The translations under genes were made by a program, and so were the position numbers. A stretch of 64,000 bases of DNA, from assembly GCA_045533675.1 (NCBI GenBank), contig JAZSIF010000001.1:18980-82979 (forward strand), written 5' to 3'. The DNA is from Eubacteriales bacterium (lineage in GTDB: Bacteria; Bacillota; Clostridia; Oscillospirales; CAG-272). Below, in pieces: positions 2,984 to 39,935 of this stretch (positions are counted from its first letter, which is position 1; the number at the start of each line of letters is the position of its first letter). Under the pieces are notes generated by a model. That model was not told the origin of the DNA. It saw only the letters and a program-made list of their open reading frames with translations, and made no database searches.

Positions 2984-4636
2984 ATGACAGAATGGATCTT
3001 AACAAAAGCCGATTTTTCCGACCATCCCGCTCTGGATTTTGAGCGAATCATGCGCCGCTGCCGTACCGAGGGAGTCCGCCGCTTGGTGGTACCCAAGGAT
3101 ACCTATTTGATCGAGGCGGATTACTGTGCCCAAGCATATCTGACGGTCTCCAATCACGGCCACAACGGCCCCAAGCGAATCGCCTTCCTCATTGAGGATA
3201 TGGAGGATTTTGAAATTGATTTCTCGGGCTCGCTTTTGATGTGCCACGGGATCCTGACCCCATTTGTCCTGCTCCGCTCCAAAAATATCCGCATTAAGGG
3301 TGTTCGCCTGGACAGCGACTTTACCCAGGCAATGGAGGCACGTGTGATTGCTCACAACGAGGATGGTTCTGTCGATTTAGAGCCCATCCGAGGCATGGAT
3401 GGCTTTAAAATTCTTGGAGGCTTACTGTTCTGCAAGCGTGCCAGCTTTCCCGGCGATCTCCAGCCTATGCATATGCAGGTAGAATTCCGTCCCGACACGG
3501 GCGAAATCGAATACGGAACAGGAGATCACACCTTTAATGTGAATCCCTCGGAAATGAAATTTGAGCAATTGGAGAACGGAAATCTCCGTTGTCACGGCAT
3601 CAAGCGGATGCCCCCCATTGGCAATGTTCTTATCTTCATGGGCTCTCGCCGTGTGGGTTCGGGCTTCTTCTTAGAGGAGTGTGACGGAGTGACCCTTTCC
3701 GACGTGATCGTTTACGCCTGCTACGGCATGGCATATATTGCCCAAATGTCGAAGAATCTTAGCCTTTCGGACTTCCACACCAAGCGCGCCGAGGGTCGCT
3801 ATCTGTCCGCCAACGCGGATGCCACCCATTTCGTCAACTGCTCGGGTGACGTGCTCGTGGAAAATTGCTCTTTTGAGGGTCAGCTGGACGATGCCTTGAA
3901 CATCCACGGGATGTACACCCGTGTCATGGAGGTCAAGGGTCGTGAGCTCTTGCTCCGCCAGATGCACATTGAAGCCACGGGCATCCGCATCTTCCATGCG
4001 GGAGATAGAATCCGCGCTCTGCCCACCGATACGCTGATCCCCTATGAAGAACACACCATCGAATCGGTGGAATACATCAACGACCGACTTTGCCGTCTGA
4101 CCCTTGATGGCTCGGCAGAGGGCATCTCCGTTGGTGACGACATCGAAAACATCAGCGCCTCGGCAAACCTGATCTTCCGAAAGAACGTGGTACAGAACAA
4201 CCGTGCCCGCGGTATGCTGATCGCCAACATCGGCACCTCTCTCATCGAGGACTGCTATTTCCACACCTCCGGCTCCTCCGTAAAGTTAGAGTGTGACGGA
4301 GAATACTGGTTTGAGTCGGGCGGAGTGGGCGAGCTGACCATCCGAGGATGCACCTTTGACCGCTGTCTCCACGGCAAATGGGGCAAAGCGATTATCGAGG
4401 CACAAAAGCGAAAGGCAGTCAAGGAAGATGCTTACTTCCACCGCCGTGTCGTCATCGAAAGCAATGACTTTATTATGTATAGCGACGGCGTGGCGCAGCT
4501 CAACAACACTGAGGAATTTGTGTTCCAAAACAACCGCATCACCCCCGCGGAAGGCTTTACTCCTTGCGTAAAAGCAACCCACATCCGCACCCTTGAGGTT
4601 CAGCCCGACGTGGCTCTGAATCCCGTGGAGGCATAA
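2984..4636 (+). CDS. right-handed parallel beta-helix repeat protein (possible glycoside hydrolase)
   Basis: 550 aa with repeated ...N.V..N....G..I... turns, for example IFRKNVVQNNRARGMLIAN and IEDCYFHTSGSSVKLE. There is no signal peptide. The family assignment is by eye only. Confidence 0.45.
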   Translation: MTEWILTKADFSDHPALDFERIMRRCRTEGVRRLVVPKDTYLIEADYCAQAYLTVSNHGHNGPKRIAFLIEDMEDFEIDFSGSLLMCHGILTPFVLLRSKNIRIKGVRLDSDFTQAMEARVIAHNEDGSVDLEPIRGMDGFKILGGLLFCKRASFPGDLQPMHMQVEFRPDTGEIEYGTGDHTFNVNPSEMKFEQLENGNLRCHGIKRMPPIGNVLIFMGSRRVGSGFFLEECDGVTLSDVIVYACYGMAYIAQMSKNLSLSDFHTKRAEGRYLSANADATHFVNCSGDVLVENCSFEGQLDDALNIHGMYTRVMEVKGRELLLRQMHIEATGIRIFHAGDRIRALPTDTLIPYEEHTIESVEYINDRLCRLTLDGSAEGISVGDDIENISASANLIFRKNVVQNNRARGMLIANIGTSLIEDCYFHTSGSSVKLECDGEYWFESGGVGELTIRGCTFDRCLHGKWGKAIIEAQKRKAVKEDAYFHRRVVIESNDFIMYSDGVAQLNNTEEFVFQNNRITPAEGFTPCVKATHIRTLEVQPDVALNPVEA

Positions 4637-34814: not shown

Positions 34815-35360
34815 TTAGCCGAAGTATCTCTGAAGCAGTCCCTCAAACGCCTTGCCGTGTCTTGCCTCGTCGCGAGCCATCTCGTGAACGGTGTCGTGGA
34901 TCGCGTCGAGATTGAGAGCCTTTGCTCTCTTTGCGAGGTCAAACTTGCCCTCGGTCGCGCCGTTCTCGGCGGCAACTCTCATCTCCAGATTCTTCTTGGT
35001 AGAAGCAGTTACAACCTCACCCAGAAGCTCAGCGAACTTTGCGGCATGCTCCGCCTCCTCGTAGGCTGCCTTCTCCCAGTACAGACCGATCTCGGGGTAG
35101 CCCTCACGGTGAGCCACTCTTGCCATTGCCAGGTACATACCTACCTCGGTGCACTCGCCCTGGAAGTTCGCGCGAAGGTCCATGATGATATCCTCGGGAG
35201 CACCCTCAGCTACGCCGACTACATGCTCAGCTGCCCAAGACAGCTTATTCTCTTCCATCTTATTGAACTTATCAGCGGGAACCTTGCACTGGGGGCATCT
35301 CTCGGGAGCAGCGTCTCCCTCGTGAACGTAACCACATACAGAACATACAAATTTTGCCAT
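34815..35360 (-). CDS. rbr: reverse rubrerythrin (N-terminal rubredoxin-like domain plus di-iron four-helix bundle)
   Basis: [22 protein letters not shown], then [14 protein letters not shown]...EEAEHAAKF...EGK...[11 protein letters not shown] (ExxH motifs). Confidence 0.92.
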
Positions 35361-35396: not shown

Positions 35397-35798
35397 TTAG
35401 GTTTCAGATTGTGTGCCGCGACATTTTTCGCAGACACCGATGAATTCCAGGTGGCAATCCTCCAAGAGAAAGCCCTCGCACCCCTCTGCCTTTGCGGTAA
35501 TCGATTCATCGTCCACCTCGGTATGGACATCCGCCACGGCACCGCAACAGCGGCAGGTCACGTGGTAATGCCGTCCTAAGGTGATATCGAATCGGTCATT
35601 CGCCTCGGTCAGCTTGAGTCTTTGGATCCTTCCCTCCTCGGCAGCCTCCGCCAACAGTCGGTAAACCGTCGCGCGGCTGATTCCCGGATACTTCTCCTGC
35701 ACCGCCTCGTACACCATTCCGGCGGAGGGGTGATTGTTCATGCTGCAAAAGACATCGGAAACGATTCTCTTTTGCAGGGTATTTCGTTGCTGTTTCAT
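35397..35798 (-). CDS. perR: Fur-family regulator, PerR-like
   Basis: 133 aa with HPSAGMVYEAV...ISRATVYRLL and HYHVTCRCCG...CEKC. It is the first gene of an oxidative-stress operon. Confidence 0.8.
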   Translation of the reverse strand: MKQQRNTLQKRIVSDVFCSMNNHPSAGMVYEAVQEKYPGISRATVYRLLAEAAEEGRIQRLKLTEANDRFDITLGRHYHVTCRCCGAVADVHTEVDDESITAKAEGCEGFLLEDCHLEFIGVCEKCRGTQSET

Positions 35799-35812
35799 AA
35801 TACTCCATCCTT

Positions 35813-35829
35813 ATTGAGAATCATTCTTT
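35813..35829 (-). promoter_or_regulatory. Fur/PerR-box-like palindrome between the -10 and the perR RBS
   Basis: TTGAGAATCATTCTTTA with a perfect AGAAT-C-ATTCT core (35817-35827), in a 7-1-7 layout. Confidence 0.45.
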
Positions 35830-35840
35830 ATTGTGTCTAT

Positions 35841-35869
35841 ATTATAACATGTCCTTTTTCACTTGTCAA
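35841..35869 (-). promoter_or_regulatory. sigma-A promoter of the perR operon
   Basis: Minus strand TTGACA, 17-nt spacer, TATAAT. Confidence 0.65.
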
Positions 35870-35899: not shown

Positions 35900-35932
35900 T
35901 TTAAAAGAAAAGAGCCGTGAAAACACGGCTCT
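35900..35932 (-). terminator. intrinsic terminator after oadG-like gene
   Basis: Minus strand AGAGCCGTG tttt CACGGCTCT followed by TTTCTTTTAA. Confidence 0.7.
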
Positions 35933-35942
35933 TCTGTGGGGA

Positions 35943-36116
35943 TCATTCCCCGTCCTTTTGTTGTTTCTTTGCCTCGATTTTGCCAAAAATGGCATTCAGA
36001 GCATAGACCGACAGAATGATCACGCCGATGACAACGAAAATGCAAAGCATTCCCTTCCACATATACTGGAGAGATTCAAAGAAACGGTTCATATCAATAT
36101 TCGAAAACAGGTTCAT
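35943..36116 (-). CDS. OadG-like small membrane subunit of a Na+-translocating decarboxylase
   Basis: Below the track cutoff, so translated manually: MNLFSNIDMNRFFESLQYMWKGMLCIFVVIGVIILSVYALNAIFGKIEAKKQQKDGE (57 aa). It has one TM segment and RBS GAGGAGGG. It sits 18 nt after oadB. Confidence 0.55.
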   Translation of the reverse strand: MNLFSNIDMNRFFESLQYMWKGMLCIFVVIGVIILSVYALNAIFGKIEAKKQQKDGE

Positions 36117-36134: not shown

Positions 36135-37244
36135 TTAAAGCATAAAGCTTAGGATCAATCCGCCCGCGATGACCGAGGCGATCTGTCCCGATACGTTGAC
36201 ACCGATGGAATGCATCAGAAGGAAGTTTTGAGGATCCTCTTTCAGACCCATCTTATGGACGACACGTCCCGACATGGGGAATGCCGAGATACCCGCCGCG
36301 CCGATCATGGGATTGATCTTGTTCTTCTTGGAGAAGAGGTTGATCACCTTAGCGACCAAAATTCCGCCTACCGTATCGAAGATAAAGGCAAAGAGTCCGA
36401 GTCCGAGGATGAGAAGGGTTGCGGGCTGGAGGAACTTTGCCGCCGTCATCTGGGTCGCCACGGTAATACCGAGGAAGATGGTAATCAGGTTCGCCAGAAC
36501 CTTTTGCGCCGTCTCCGAAAGAGAGTTCAACACACCGCACTCACGGATCAGGTTACCGAACATCAAAAATCCGAGAAGGTCAATGGATTCGGGAGCGACC
36601 AGTCCCGCGATCACGGTGATCACGATGGGGAACATGATTCTTGTGGTCTTGGATACGCTTTTCGGTTTATAGGGCATCCGAATCAGACGCTCCTTCTTGG
36701 TGGTCATCATCTTGATAATGGGAGGCTGAATGACGGGCACCAATGCCATATAGGAATATGCCGCCACCATAATCGCTCCCGTAATGGTAGACGCGTCACC
36801 CAGCAGCTTCTGTGCCACCACGATGGCGGTAGGACCGTCTGCCGCGCCGATGATACCGATGGATGCCGCCTCGGGCAGAGTAAAGAAGATGGATGCCAGG
36901 CTAAAGGTAAAGAAGATACCGAACTGCGCCGCCGCGCCGAAGATCATCAGCTTGGGGTTCGACAGAATCGGTCCGAAGTCGATCATCGCGCCGATACCGA
37001 TGAAGAGGATCAAGGGGAACAGCTCGTTTTTGATTCCCGCGTCAAACAGCGTCGACAGCGCTCCGTCGTACACGGCGGGAATGTTGACAATGATCGCTCC
37101 CAAGCCCATGGGCAGAAGCAGTGTGGGTTCCATGTCCTTTTTGATGGCAAGGAAGATCAATAAGCCGCCAATCAGCCACATGACCACTCTCTGCCAGCCG
37201 CCGTCCGAGAACAGATCAAGGACACCCTCGTAAAGAATTTCCAT
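36135..37244 (-). CDS. oadB: sodium ion-translocating decarboxylase beta subunit
   Basis: 369 aa, polytopic, with PLILFIGIGAMIDFGP, GIIGAADGPTAI and GAAGISAFPMSGR. Confidence 0.88.
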   Translation of the reverse strand: MEILYEGVLDLFSDGGWQRVVMWLIGGLLIFLAIKKDMEPTLLLPMGLGAIIVNIPAVYDGALSTLFDAGIKNELFPLILFIGIGAMIDFGPILSNPKLMIFGAAAQFGIFFTFSLASIFFTLPEAASIGIIGAADGPTAIVVAQKLLGDASTITGAIMVAAYSYMALVPVIQPPIIKMMTTKKERLIRMPYKPKSVSKTTRIMFPIVITVIAGLVAPESIDLLGFLMFGNLIRECGVLNSLSETAQKVLANLITIFLGITVATQMTAAKFLQPATLLILGLGLFAFIFDTVGGILVAKVINLFSKKNKINPMIGAAGISAFPMSGRVVHKMGLKEDPQNFLLMHSIGVNVSGQIASVIAGGLILSFML

Positions 37245-37279: not shown

Positions 37280-38431
37280 TCACATCACAAATTGCATCGT
37301 GCAAAACGCGGCATAGACACAAAGAAGCAGAATGCCCTGAACGCGGGAAAGCTTGCCGCGAATGAGAGCGGGGACGGTCAAAAGAAGCATGACGCCCAGC
37401 ATCACGGGAATATCCAGCACCAAGGATGCGGCAATGCCGCCGACGGTGGCTTCCGCGGGAACAAGGAAGGGAGAAATCGTGGTTGCGACACCGCTGACCA
37501 ATACCAGGTTGAAAAGGTTCGCTCCGATGATATTTCCGAGAGACAGCGCTCCGTGTCCCTTGGCAAGAGCCGTAATCGCCGTCACGAGCTCGGGCAGAGA
37601 CGTGCCAAGTGCCACAAAGGTCAGTCCGATCACCGTATCGGGAACTCCCATCGTTTCCGCAATATAGGTACCGCTATCCACCAGAAGATTGGCGCCGCCC
37701 GCAATGACCGCCGCGCCGACGATCAGGAACAGGACCTCACGTAGCATGGTAATTCCCTTGCCTGCCTGATTGCGAATCAGTGCCACTACGGCATACACAA
37801 GGAAGAGTACCATCATAACCACGCCGATATAGCGCATCATTCCGCCCTTGTAGATCATAAAGCCGCCGCCCACAAAGGCAACCAGCGCCTCGATCACAAG
37901 GCCTTTAATAGAAAGGAAAAATTCCTCCGTCTCCTCCTGCGTCTCACACTCGGAAAGTGCCTCCATCTCTGTACCGCTTCCCTTCTTCATGGAAAGCATG
38001 GTGCAGACCATGTAAACGAAGAAGCCGCAAAGCAGAACGATGCCCACCCAACGGGTGAATTCGCCCATCAGATATGCCACCAGAACGTAGAATACCGCCG
38101 CGCCGAAGAAGAAGGACACGGGCAGGATCAGCGCCTTACGGTCCGCTTTGCCCGGCTTGATGGCAATGGTCAGTGCCGCGATCAGTGAGGTGTTACAGAT
38201 AATCGAGCCTACGGCATTGCCGTATGCCATACCGCCCGAGCCTGCCATGGCACCCTGCGCGGACACCATCACCTCGGGCAGCGTCGTTCCGATAGACACC
38301 ACCGTGGCGCCGATCAGAAGCTCAGGCAGACGAAAACGACGGGCAATTCCCGACGCGCTGTCCACAAACCAGTCGCCTCCCTTGATCAACATCAATAGTC
38401 CGATCACAAACAAGAGGATTTGAAGTAACAT
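37280..38431 (-). CDS. CaCA-family cation/Na+ antiporter (YrbG-like)
   Basis: Two alpha-repeats, GTTLPEVMVS and GTSLPELVTA. The start is at MLLQILLFVIG (AAAGGAG upstream). The track adds 21 unsupported codons. Confidence 0.88.
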   Translation of the reverse strand: MLLQILLFVIGLLMLIKGGDWFVDSASGIARRFRLPELLIGATVVSIGTTLPEVMVSAQGAMAGSGGMAYGNAVGSIICNTSLIAALTIAIKPGKADRKALILPVSFFFGAAVFYVLVAYLMGEFTRWVGIVLLCGFFVYMVCTMLSMKKGSGTEMEALSECETQEETEEFFLSIKGLVIEALVAFVGGGFMIYKGGMMRYIGVVMMVLFLVYAVVALIRNQAGKGITMLREVLFLIVGAAVIAGGANLLVDSGTYIAETMGVPDTVIGLTFVALGTSLPELVTAITALAKGHGALSLGNIIGANLFNLVLVSGVATTISPFLVPAEATVGGIAASLVLDIPVMLGVMLLLTVPALIRGKLSRVQGILLLCVYAAFCTMQFVM

Positions 38432-38481
38432 TGTTTTTCTCCTTTTTACGTTTTGTATACCTTTTATCTTTATTTTTGCAT

Positions 38482-38616
38482 AAAAAAAGCTCAATATATG
38501 GCTCTTGCGGCTTCCATATATTGAGTCTGGTTCTTTAAAGCAAGCCAGGTCTTATGACCATGCTGTTGACTTGCTACGCGCGAAACATCCGCACGCCACT
38601 ACTCCCTCAAACTTAC
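38482..38616 (-). promoter_or_regulatory. candidate yybP-ykoY (Mn2+) type riboswitch with terminator
   Basis: The leader RNA reads ..GAGGGAGUAGUGGCGUGCGGAUGUUUCGCGCGUAGCAAGUCAACAGCAUGGUCAUAAGACCUGGCUUGCU... It ends in the 12-bp terminator CUCAAUAUAUGG..CCAUAUAUUGAG plus U7. GGGAGUAG, GUCAACA and AAGACC resemble conserved yybP-ykoY blocks. Confidence 0.45.
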
Positions 38617-38622
38617 CTATTT

Positions 38623-38651
38623 ATTATATAAAGAAATTTCGCTCTTGTCAA
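38623..38651 (-). promoter_or_regulatory. sigma-A promoter of the riboswitch-CaCA-oadBG unit
   Basis: Minus strand TTGACA, 17-nt spacer, TATAAT. Confidence 0.65.
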
Positions 38652-38685
38652 GAGTTTTTTTAAAAAGATTGAATTTTCTTTCCTT

Positions 38686-38835
38686 AAAAAAGAAATCCGT
38701 CGGTGGTGCCAAAGGCGCCGACGGATTTCAGCCTTAGAAAAAATATCTTATACGGTACACAATGACCACAGCCCTGCTGAGAAAGCCAAAAACGTTTTGT
38801 TGTAAGTTTTTGCGGAGCTTTTTTCAAAAAGCGCG
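38686..38835 (+). repeat. intergenic repeat family copy C (H-M-T)
   Basis: AGAAATCCGTCGG..CCGACGGATTTC, then TTAGAAAAAATATCTTATACGGTACACAATG, then TTGTTGTAAGTTTTTGCGGAGCTTTTTTCAAAAAGCG. It lies immediately 3' of asd. Confidence 0.7.
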
Positions 38836-38858
38836 AGAAATCCTTTTCTCAGCTATCC

Positions 38859-39935
38859 TTAATTGAAGTAACCCTCTCTGTACAAAAGCTCGGCGATCAG
38901 TACAGCGCCGCCAGCGGCACCGCGGAGCGTGTTGTGAGACAGACCCACGAACTTGTAATCGTAGATCTTATCCTCACGAAGTCTGCCCACGGTTACGCCC
39001 ATGCCGCCGTAGATATCACGGTCGAGAGCAGCCTGGGGACGGTTGTCTTCCTCAAAATAGGTAATGAACTGCTCGGGGGCATTGGGAAGTCCAAGCTCCT
39101 GGGGCTTACCCTTGAATTCAGCCCATGCCTTGAGGATTTCCTCCTTCGTGGGCTTATTCTCGAATTTCACGAACACAGCGGCGGTATGACCGTCGGTCAC
39201 GGGCACGCGAATGCACTGAGTGGTGATGACGGGCGCGTCAGCCTTGACAATCTCGCCGTTCTCAACCTTACCCCAAACGCGCAGGGGCTCCTGCTCGCTC
39301 TTCTCTTCCTCGCCGCCGATGAAGGGGATCACGTTATCGATCATTTCGGGCCACTCGCGGAACGTCTTGCCCGCGCCCGAAATTGCCTGATAGGTGGTAG
39401 CCACCACTTCCTTGATGCCATACTTGCGCAGAGGCGTCAGGGCGGGTACATAGGACTGAATGGAGCAGTTGGGCTTGACGGCAATGAATCCGCGCTTGGT
39501 TCCGAGACGCTTTCTCTGTGCCTCGATGACTGCCAGATGCTCGTCGTTGATCTCGGGAATCACCATGGGAACATCAGGCGTCCAACGGTTTGCGGAGTTA
39601 TTGGAGACCACGGGAATCTCTGCCTTGGCATATGCCTCCTCCAGCGCCTTAATCTCATCCTTTTTCATATCCACGGCACAGAACACAAACTGACAGAGCT
39701 TGCCCATCTCGTCGATCCTTGCCGCATCCAGCACGGGCATCTTCTTATATTTCTCGGGCATGGGAGTCTTCATCTTCCAACGAGCGCCCACTGCCTCCTC
39801 ATAGGTCTTTCCCGCGGAGCGAGCCGAAGCCGCCAGCGCCGCTACCTCAAAATAGGGGTGATTCTCCAGCAGGGTCAGGAATCTCTGTCCTACCATACCC
39901 GTGGCGCCAACCACGCCAACCTTCATCTTTTCCAT
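38859..39935 (-). CDS. asd: aspartate-semialdehyde dehydrogenase
   Basis: MKVGVVGATGMVGQRF..., with the active-site region KPNCSIQS. Confidence 0.92.
   Translation of the reverse strand: MEKMKVGVVGATGMVGQRFLTLLENHPYFEVAALAASARSAGKTYEEAVGARWKMKTPMPEKYKKMPVLDAARIDEMGKLCQFVFCAVDMKKDEIKALEEAYAKAEIPVVSNNSANRWTPDVPMVIPEINDEHLAVIEAQRKRLGTKRGFIAVKPNCSIQSYVPALTPLRKYGIKEVVATTYQAISGAGKTFREWPEMIDNVIPFIGGEEEKSEQEPLRVWGKVENGEIVKADAPVITTQCIRVPVTDGHTAAVFVKFENKPTKEEILKAWAEFKGKPQELGLPNAPEQFITYFEEDNRPQAALDRDIYGGMGVTVGRLREDKIYDYKFVGLSHNTLRGAAGGAVLIAELLYREGYFN

Follow-up and report, generated by a model that had tools for sequence, protein, structure and literature searches.

A leader RNA on the minus strand at positions 38482-38651 of a 64,000-nt stretch of DNA from a Eubacteriales bacterium (contig JAZSIF010000001.1; the whole stretch is herein referred to as the window) precedes an operon that encodes a homologue of CaCA-family cation antiporters and two membrane subunits of a Na+-translocating decarboxylase, OadB and OadG. 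This leader is very probably a yybP-ykoY riboswitch of the three-way-junction type, in which the P4 hairpin is lost, and we hold with good confidence that it acts as a metal-sensing ON switch of this class, with Mn2+ as the most likely ligand. A reading of the window from sequence alone (herein the sequence-only reading) had proposed a yybP-ykoY-type Mn2+ ON-switch leader of CaCA-oadB-oadG, a proposal supported here by covariation, by the cores of loops L1 and L3, by the three-way layout, by cross-detection between covariance models and by the MntP context of its relatives. The leader is conserved, its helices covary, its core is identical to that of the family, its switch helix P1 and its terminator exclude each other, and its gene contexts recur across relatives. 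The riboswitch class, the three-way-junction form and the mechanism are already known; what is unusual here is that the membrane subunits of a Na+ pump would also be controlled.

Structure of the leader and its proposed switch

The promoter of the operon sits downstream of an intrinsic terminator, read from the sequence at 38686-38728 (AAATCCGTCGG...CCGACGGATTT followed by a T tract), that belongs to asd (identified by Pfam) and insulates the operon's own promoter. The latter, called perfect in the sequence-only reading, does match the consensus at 12 of 12 positions (38651-38623), with a -35 hexamer TTGACA at 38646-38651 and, at 17-nt spacing, a -10 hexamer TATAAT at 38623-38628. Perfect promoters in this genome are real, given that five occur in the window compared with 0.01 expected from shuffles. 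Transcription would start near 38616, yielding a leader of ~135 nt that runs to the end of a U tract at 38482, and both coordinates and folding agree with the intrinsic terminator described earlier (38482-38525): a 12-bp stem (38525-38514 with 38501-38490), a 12-nt loop and C plus U7 (38489-38482). Its arms read CTCAATATATGG (38525-38514) and CCATATATTGAG (38501-38490) as DNA, followed by C and T7, and CUCAAUAUAUGG and CCAUAUAUUGAG, at the same respective positions, as RNA. An automated terminator scan did not call this element because its loop limit is 8 nt (the loop here has 12) and the stem is AT-rich, and the terminator was verified by folding instead. It had been placed directly before the CaCA gene, which needs amending, as it ends ~50 nt upstream of the CaCA ATG at 38431; a ribosome-binding site, AAAGGAG (38439-38445, by sequence reading), lies 7 nt before that start codon.

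The aptamer was delimited by alignment with homologous leaders from related genomes and metagenomes (described below) and by folding. It opens with the 5' strand of P1, the switch helix P1.1 (UUGAG, 38606-38610), whose partner is CUCAA at 38525-38521; of 23 aligned sequences, 20-23 retain each of the four inner pairs, and the outer pairs covary. The 5' half of L1 follows (GGAGUAG, 38599-38605), invariant in the alignments and fitting the consensus UUGGGGAGUAGCc of the Rfam yybP-ykoY family, RF00080; together with G38606 it forms the block GGGAGUAG (38606-38599), part of the longer L1 string GAGGGAGUAG (38608-38599). Positions 38576-38599 hold the 5' strand of a short helix P1a (P1.2) and the P2 hairpin (GGCGUGCGG-AUG-UUUCGCGCGU) of the minimum free energy (MFE) fold, and both P2 and P1a covary across relatives. 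The 5' strand of P3 (AGCAAGUCA, 38567-38575), at the position of GcuUgCGUCA in RF00080, has 98% of its cells paired and outer pairs that swap between AU and GC. It leads into L3, a 7-nt bulge (ACAGCAU, 38560-38566; RF00080 consensus ACAUACU) that starts with ACA in 18 of 20 genome members and has A at its third position in all 20. Beyond L3 lie P3a (GGUC-AUAA-GACC, 38548-38559), a hairpin of variable sequence seen in the fold and the alignments, and the aligned 3' strand of P3 (UGGCUUGCU, 38539-38547). A single-stranded linker (UUAAAGAA, 38531-38538) occupies the site of the canonical P4 hairpin, and its UUAAA (38538-38534) fits the published UNAAA (PMC6649816). The 3' strand of P1a and the 3' half of L1 (CC-AGA, 38526-38530, a variable nucleotide and then the invariable AGA) complete the core, the conserved L1 3' half being CAGA (38529-38526) with C38525; none of the 20 genome sequences departs from G9-A15 or from AGAC. 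The last element is the P1 3' strand CUCAA (38521-38525), the switching sequence, which coordinates and folding identify as the first 5 nt of the terminator 5' arm. The junction thus joins P1a, P2 and P3, and the four-way form is absent. Folded alone, the aptamer gives P2 and P3/L3/P3a as proposed, with an outer closing helix whose register is slightly off P1. Among the riboswitch-like blocks listed in the sequence-only reading, GGGAGUAG, GUCAACA (38570-38564) and both helices (AGCAAG...CUUGCU and GGUC-AUAA-GACC) are all present in the leader; AAGACC, taken there for a conserved loop, lies in the variable P3a.

Several nucleotides can be given putative roles from published structures. The L1 of the window has the arrangement defined for the class, 5' GGGGAGUAG opposite 3' N-AGA in a sarcin-ricin-like form (PMC6754395, PMC6649816), and by alignment its G-G-A would take the roles described in the same two studies, with A38603 as the predicted A-minor adenosine. 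The corresponding receptor is predicted to be the pair C38568-G38546 in P3, two positions before L3, by analogy with the contact in published structures; this pair is CG in 22/22 genome members and in 68/68 of the metagenome members listed. An adenosine of L3, the third base of ACA-UACU in Xanthomonas oryzae and of UCA-AUUC in Lactococcus lactis, is the invariant Mn2+ contact of the family (PMC6754395), and C38565 and A38564 appear to correspond to the metal-contacting C and A (A41 in L. lactis, A48 in X. oryzae, A50 in Streptococcus pneumoniae).

The closest described relative in architecture is the three-way-junction Mn2+ riboswitch of S. pneumoniae mgtA, in which UNAAA stands in place of P4, a variable nucleotide plus an invariable AGA make up the L1 3' half, the L3 C-A is invariant, a C-G receptor pair stands just before L3 and a terminator follows directly (PMC6649816). 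Compared by its published description, it shares with the window RNA the P1/L1/P1.2, P2 and P3/L3 elements, the missing P4 (with UUAAA here as the UNAAA), the N-AGA, the L3 C-A, the predicted C-G receptor pair and a P1-overlapping terminator that makes an ON switch. The two differ in host (Streptococcus there, uncultured gut Clostridia here), in cargo (a PII-type ATPase there; CaCA-oadB-oadG here and mostly MntP in relatives) and in P3, which is nearly fixed as GCAAGUCA/UGGCUUGC in the Clostridial subfamily. Canonical four-way yybP-ykoY RNAs (L. lactis yoaB, X. oryzae, Escherichia coli mntP; RF00080) likewise have L1 GGGAGUAG/AGA, a 7-nt L3 starting A/U-C-A, a P3 ending GUCA/UGGC, a P1.1 switch helix and Mn exporter cargo, whereas the window RNA lacks their P4 hairpin and has a three-way junction. 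That the family tolerates the loss of one of the two helices above the junction is also seen in the three-way yybP-ykoY RNA of E. coli alx (PMC12153347); alx, however, is without P2 and keeps P4, the reverse of the window RNA; its control is translational and pH-responsive, and it occurs only in Enterobacterales.

The switch itself can be read from the overlap of two helices. The MFE structure of the full leader is the terminator state, at -46.0 kcal/mol compared with -36.6 kcal/mol when P1 is enforced. As the sequence-only reading had recognized, the 3' flank of the aptamer overlaps the 5' arm of the terminator: CUCAA (38525-38521) is common to P1 and to that arm, hence P1 and the terminator are mutually exclusive, and an ON switch is expected since the P1 3' strand is the start of the terminator 5' arm. 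In antitermination by this class, Mn2+ docks L1 onto L3 and so stabilizes P1.1, a helix weak in itself, that the terminator strand does not invade it (PMC6754395). We hypothesize that, without ligand, the 12-bp terminator (38525-38490 plus U7) would form here and transcription would halt ~50 nt before the CaCA start codon; that, as cytoplasmic Mn2+ rises, an ion would be held between L1 and L3 in contact with the conserved L3 adenosine A38564, the two helical legs docking so that the weak 5-bp P1 (UUGAG/CUCAA) is stabilized; and that P1 would then sequester the first 5 nt of the terminator 5' arm, allowing RNA polymerase to read on into CaCA-oadB-oadG. We infer both the ligand and the docking in this leader, the docking by analogy with published structures of the family.

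Conservation and covariation in relatives

Two sets of relatives were assembled. In the genome set, comprising 80 loci that encode CaCA homologues, the leader was sought with nhmmer and regular expressions and was found upstream in 20 of the 80. The metagenome set was gathered with a DNA pattern that fixed only the L1-5', L3 and P3-3' words, was not biased toward any gene and contributed nothing to model training; at least 120 stretches matched, and among the 80 loci listed 77 are real members with 68 distinct sequences. Genome loci and the metagenome matches listed together amount to about 100 gut-Clostridia loci in which the leader is conserved.

Raw leaders aligned with MAFFT and analyzed with RNAalifold gave P3 alone, owing to misalignment of the variable hairpins, and this alignment was replaced by a landmark-anchored parse and by alignments based on covariance models. 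The parse gives a common 5' layout of P1 (AUGAG/CUCAU), an invariant GGAGUAG, a short covarying P1a (GCAA/UUGC, GCGA/UCGC, GUG/CAC or AUUC/GAAU) and a variable P2 hairpin, and a common 3' layout of P3 (AGCAAGUCA/UGGCUUGCU, with a 7-nt bulge starting ACA on its 5' side), a variable P3a, a UUUAAAU-like linker, the P1a 3' strand, N-AGA and the P1 3' strand. Covariation supports P1, P1a, P2, P3 and P3a. In the genome set 84% of cells are paired, compared with 23-41% when strands are slid, 25 of the 28 pairs have two-sided changes and none of 500 shuffles scores as high; among the 68 distinct metagenome sequences from the matches listed, the figures are 90.3% paired and 28-45% slid, again with no shuffle of 500 as high, and with compensatory swaps such as CG to UA in P1a (33:25) and AU to GC in outer P3 (33:30).

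A covariance model, R1, built solely from these Clostridial leaders gives the window 71.2 bits (38516-38614) and detects 22 loci, with scores of 28-87 bits. It also finds the E. coli mntP riboswitch (L081, 1963-2051; 20.7 bits, E=0.014 in 555 kb), at the same site as RF00080, and the detection works in both directions: run at E<=10 on 10 further members of the subfamily, RF00080 reports L114 (23.9 bits), L152 (18.3 bits) and L159 (14.2 bits), each at the motif itself and each below threshold. The distance from UGGCUUG to NAGAC, measured with a pattern agnostic to P4, is a constant 11 nt in ~76 of the 80 metagenome matches listed, which shows that P4 is uniformly lost.

The expression platform is more varied. 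A simple terminator at the position found in the window, overlapping P1, occurs in 44 of the 79 unique family members listed. In the other ~35 (e.g., L095, L097, L128, L135 and L139), which have no simple terminator at P1, a first hairpin overlaps the P1 3' strand and a second one, GC-rich and with a U tract, comes after it, suggesting a three-hairpin expression platform. Some three-way-junction members are more divergent, their L3 or P3 being altered (L043:4948-5041, in which L3 starts AGA; L053:198-290, GCA; L056:2773-2866, L3 CUAACAC), and the L043 copy lies upstream of an SPFH/Band-7 gene, not a transporter. Other Rfam matches near Mn-riboswitch loci are a cobalamin riboswitch (L057:1490-1716, 56 bits), a Clostridiales-1 RNA (L117:161-260, 49.3 bits) and an L10 leader (L082:848-978, 50.3 bits).

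The genes downstream of the relatives are the known regulon of Mn riboswitches, whose exporters include MntP, TerC and P-type ATPases. Among the metagenome matches listed, the first downstream gene encodes MntP in 47 of ~69 evaluable cases and CaCA in 6, and the remainder include PII-type (Ca2+-type) cation ATPases, a CDF exporter and an ABC transporter. Nine genome loci have the order motif-mntP-CaCA, with MntP identified by Pfam at E=1e-35 to 1e-40. These mntP-CaCA operons, together with a precedent in Bordetella pertussis, run counter to the statement in the sequence-only reading that CaCA is an atypical cargo. Indeed, BP3410 of B. pertussis is a CaCA-superfamily Mn exporter under a yybP-ykoY riboswitch, as shown experimentally (PMC8546581); there, as here, a CaCA homologue (alike at superfamily level) is the first gene behind a leader of the Mn-responsive class that terminates without Mn. 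The B. pertussis system differs in its proteobacterial host, in a riboswitch that Rfam recognizes (E=8.5e-15) and in having no oadB or oadG downstream. The most likely export substrate of the CaCA protein of the window is Mn2+, perhaps along with Ca2+, and the counter-ion would be Na+ or H+. That genes of this clade of annotated "calcium/sodium antiporters" are linked to mntP and to a Mn riboswitch speaks for a role in Mn2+ export and carries the B. pertussis precedent over to Firmicutes.

The Rfam result and the identity of the ligand

Several observations weigh against identifying the leader as a Mn2+-sensing yybP-ykoY riboswitch. The cmscan search that the sequence-only reading had proposed as a check, run with Rfam 15 on the whole window at gathering score and on 38300-38900 at E<=10, gave no RF00080 match, and taken at face value that check would have led to rejection of the idea; likewise, none of 25 subfamily members tested reaches the RF00080 gathering score of 45 bits. 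The P1 of the window has only 5 bp, and its P1a has 2-3 bp, whose register is displaced from that of most relatives. The window operon is without mntP, the clearest Mn signature of the relatives, and its own cargo (CaCA and Na+ pump subunits) is Ca2+/Na+-flavored, so that Mn2+ is not the sole candidate effector. Finally, the three-way mgtA riboswitch of S. pneumoniae binds Ca2+ in vitro about 50-fold more tightly than Mn2+ (dissociation constants of 1.7 µM and 54 µM, respectively; PMC6649816).

We read the Rfam negative as low sensitivity of the model, because the validated E. coli mntP element (L081:1962-2058) itself scores 41.6 bits against RF00080 in Rfam 15, below the gathering score, and because the three relatives named above have sub-threshold RF00080 matches. 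The printed RF00080 consensus runs UUGGGGAGUAGCc, P2, GcuUgCGUCA-ACAUACU-hairpin-UGGCGcAagC and a long P4; in the printed structure the 5' GGGGAGUAG strand (P1 5') is unpaired, the model ends after P4 without a P1 3' strand, and a very long P4 is required. The window has the counterpart GAGGGAGUAG...AGCAAGUCA-ACAGCAU-hairpin-UGGCUUGCU, that is, the same L1 block, a P3 ending GUCA/UGGC and a 7-nt L3, but no P4. Its relatives behave similarly, in that 14 homologous leaders searched with Rfam 15 gave no match at gathering score. In the window itself, no riboswitch-like match of any family appeared in 38300-38900 at E<=10. The Rfam negative reflects a gap in the model and not a different RNA, and the comparative evidence overrides it. 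Adding three-way-junction sequences to the RF00080 seed would close this annotation gap, which matters since a large Mn riboswitch subfamily of gut and rumen Clostridia is unrecognized by Rfam 15, leaving Mn-homeostasis regulons in these organisms under-annotated. The only match in the window at Rfam gathering score is a ribosomal protein L10 leader (RF00557, 17229-17374, plus strand, 50.7 bits).

The same Rfam negative would be expected if the leader sensed no ligand at all and resembled the motif by chance, being a small RNA or an attenuator that is constitutive or under protein control; the terminated leader could indeed accumulate as a ~135-nt small RNA, like BprK in B. pertussis (PMC8546581). 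We regard this as very unlikely. About 100 homologues keep their loop sequences while their helices covary, the pattern GGGAGTAG-N(14-44)-GTCAACA occurs once in the window compared with 0.00 expected by chance, and metal exporters accompany the leader regardless of the gene family through which it is found, whereas accumulation of a small RNA is compatible with a riboswitch.

A more substantial question is which ion is sensed. The same RNA and switch could respond to Ca2+, or to Ca2+ and Mn2+ together, in which case the operon would be a Ca2+-efflux module composed of a CaCA Na+/Ca2+ exchanger and a Na+ pump that re-exports the Na+. The affinities measured for the S. pneumoniae RNA would fit such a module, as would the CaCA gene, which scores above the cut-off of the calcium/sodium antiporter equivalog TIGR00367, and the placement of other subfamily members upstream of Ca2+-type P-type (PII) ATPases. 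However, read-through of the S. pneumoniae RNA in vitro is driven by Mn2+ and not by Ca2+, and the MgtA protein is not raised by Ca2+ stress in vivo (PMC6649816). MntP is, moreover, the commonest cargo of the subfamily among the matches listed, the Mn-contacting L3 adenosine is conserved, and the B. pertussis CaCA protein under the same riboswitch class exports Mn (PMC8546581). We consider a Ca2+ effector improbable and retain Mn2+ as the likely ligand.

Sodium pump subunits as putative cargo

The first gene of the operon (minus strand, as are all genes described here) encodes a CaCA calcium/sodium antiporter homologue of 383 aa (37280-38431; Pfam Na_Ca_ex, E=4e-61; NCBIfam TIGR00367, 203.8 bits against a cut-off of 179.65). 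It is followed after 35 nt by a gene for an OadB-type beta subunit of a Na+-translocating decarboxylase (36135-37244, 369 aa; Pfam OAD_beta, E=6e-147; TIGR01109, 405 bits) and, after a further 18 nt, by a gene for an OadG-like small membrane subunit (35943-36116, 57 aa), whose Pfam OAD_gamma match (E=6.8e-5) is below gathering score and which likewise comes after oadB in L002, L009 and L208. The 35- and 18-nt gaps contain no terminator and no credible promoter, and oadB-oadG would be co-transcribed with CaCA. The operon ends at a terminator read from the sequence at 35903-35932 (AGAGCCGUG-UUUU-CACGGCUCU followed by a U tract).

The OadB proteins are 82-95% identical across many metagenome-assembled genomes, and 14 distinct oadB contexts were sampled. 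A yybP-ykoY-type leader stands ahead of oadB-oadG in seven of these: four have the motif-CaCA-oadB-oadG operon (the window and L213, L002, L208 and L215), and three have a divergent form of the motif directly upstream of oadB-oadG (L009:4236-4445, L209:700-872 and L210:222-458, with L211 and L212 identical to L210). The remaining seven contexts are without the motif, and the link between oadB and the riboswitch is therefore lineage-specific. The divergent leader has its own perfect or near-perfect TTGACA/TATAAT promoter, an intact L1, a 7-bp P1 (AUAAAAG/CUUUUAU) overlapped by a terminator, an L3 of UCAGAAC, UCAGUAC or UCAAAAC (near the UCAAUUC of L. lactis) and a miniature P4, AAAC-GAAG-GUUU or AACC-UU-GGUU, in which AAAC/GUUU covaries with AACC/GGUU. 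It scores only 20-28 bits with R1, and the L009 copy has no Rfam match at gathering score. At L009 the adjoining CaCA gene is without a riboswitch and oadB-oadG has one. This variant, specific to oadB, could represent a subclass of its own and may have shifted in ligand preference.

A literature search found no report linking yybP-ykoY or Mn-riboswitch control to oadB-oadG, the two being co-mentioned in just one of the papers searched, in the context of Na+ riboswitches, and oadB-oadG thus appears to be an unreported cargo of a Mn riboswitch. That context raises a further alternative, namely that the leader senses Na+, either as a Na+-I (DUF1646) riboswitch or as a yybP-ykoY derivative of changed specificity, and switches on genes for Na+ export (OadB/OadG and a Na+-coupled exchanger). 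Na+-I riboswitches are known upstream of oxaloacetate decarboxylase and Na+-antiporter genes and are ON switches in Clostridia (PMC9337991), and half of the sampled oadB contexts do have a yybP-ykoY-type leader. The DUF1646 motif, however, is a two-hairpin (P1/P2) RNA for a monovalent ligand (PMC9337991), unrelated in sequence and fold to the window RNA, which fits yybP-ykoY; RF03071 has no match in the window or in 24 relatives, and no other Rfam riboswitch family has one in the window or, at gathering score, in the 14 homologous leaders; the subfamily lies mostly upstream of mntP; and the divalent-ion core (L1 and the L3 C-A) is intact even in the oadB variant, the L3 of which (UCAGAAC) approaches that of L. 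lactis. A Na+-sensing leader of either kind is hardly probable. The Na+-I riboswitch, which had been the candidate first considered in view of oadB and the Na+/Ca2+ context, was rejected on the missing model match, the different fold and the dominance of MntP as cargo.

OadB needs carboxyltransferase and biotin-carrier partners. In all contexts compared (L202-L216 and the window) oadB-oadG is an isolated pair with no adjacent gene for a carboxyltransferase (alpha) or biotin carrier, the rest of the window not having been searched for them, so the partners of OadB must be encoded elsewhere. The sequence-only reading had suggested efflux of Mn2+ or Ca2+ driven by a Na+ gradient as a putative function, and it is plausible that Na+ extrusion would be raised to support Na+-coupled metal efflux. 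We offer, as a tentative and rather doubtful extension, the hypothesis that the riboswitch couples sensing of Mn2+ (or Ca2+) to sodium energetics, such that OadB/OadG would be induced alongside a Na+-coupled CaCA exporter or would serve to support it, and efflux would draw on a sodium-motive force replenished when needed. If true, this would couple metal efflux to the sodium cycle in anaerobes.

The surroundings of the operon also recur. The next promoter downstream, again a perfect TTGACA-17-TATAAT (35869-35841), drives genes for a Fur-family (PerR-like) regulator and a rubrerythrin (35397-35869 and 34815-35360), and a fur-rubrerythrin(-ferritin-rubredoxin) block likewise follows oadG or CaCA in L001 and L208-L212, so that in this lineage genes for metal export are in synteny with those for oxidative stress. 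Another arrangement is found in L202 (including 3299-3500) and L203, where the order is asd, a spacer sequence that appears tRNA-like by eye, oadB, oadG, CaCA, trkA and trkH, and where the Mn motif is absent; genes for CaCA, the Na+ pump subunits and K+ uptake form a recurring cation-homeostasis neighborhood.

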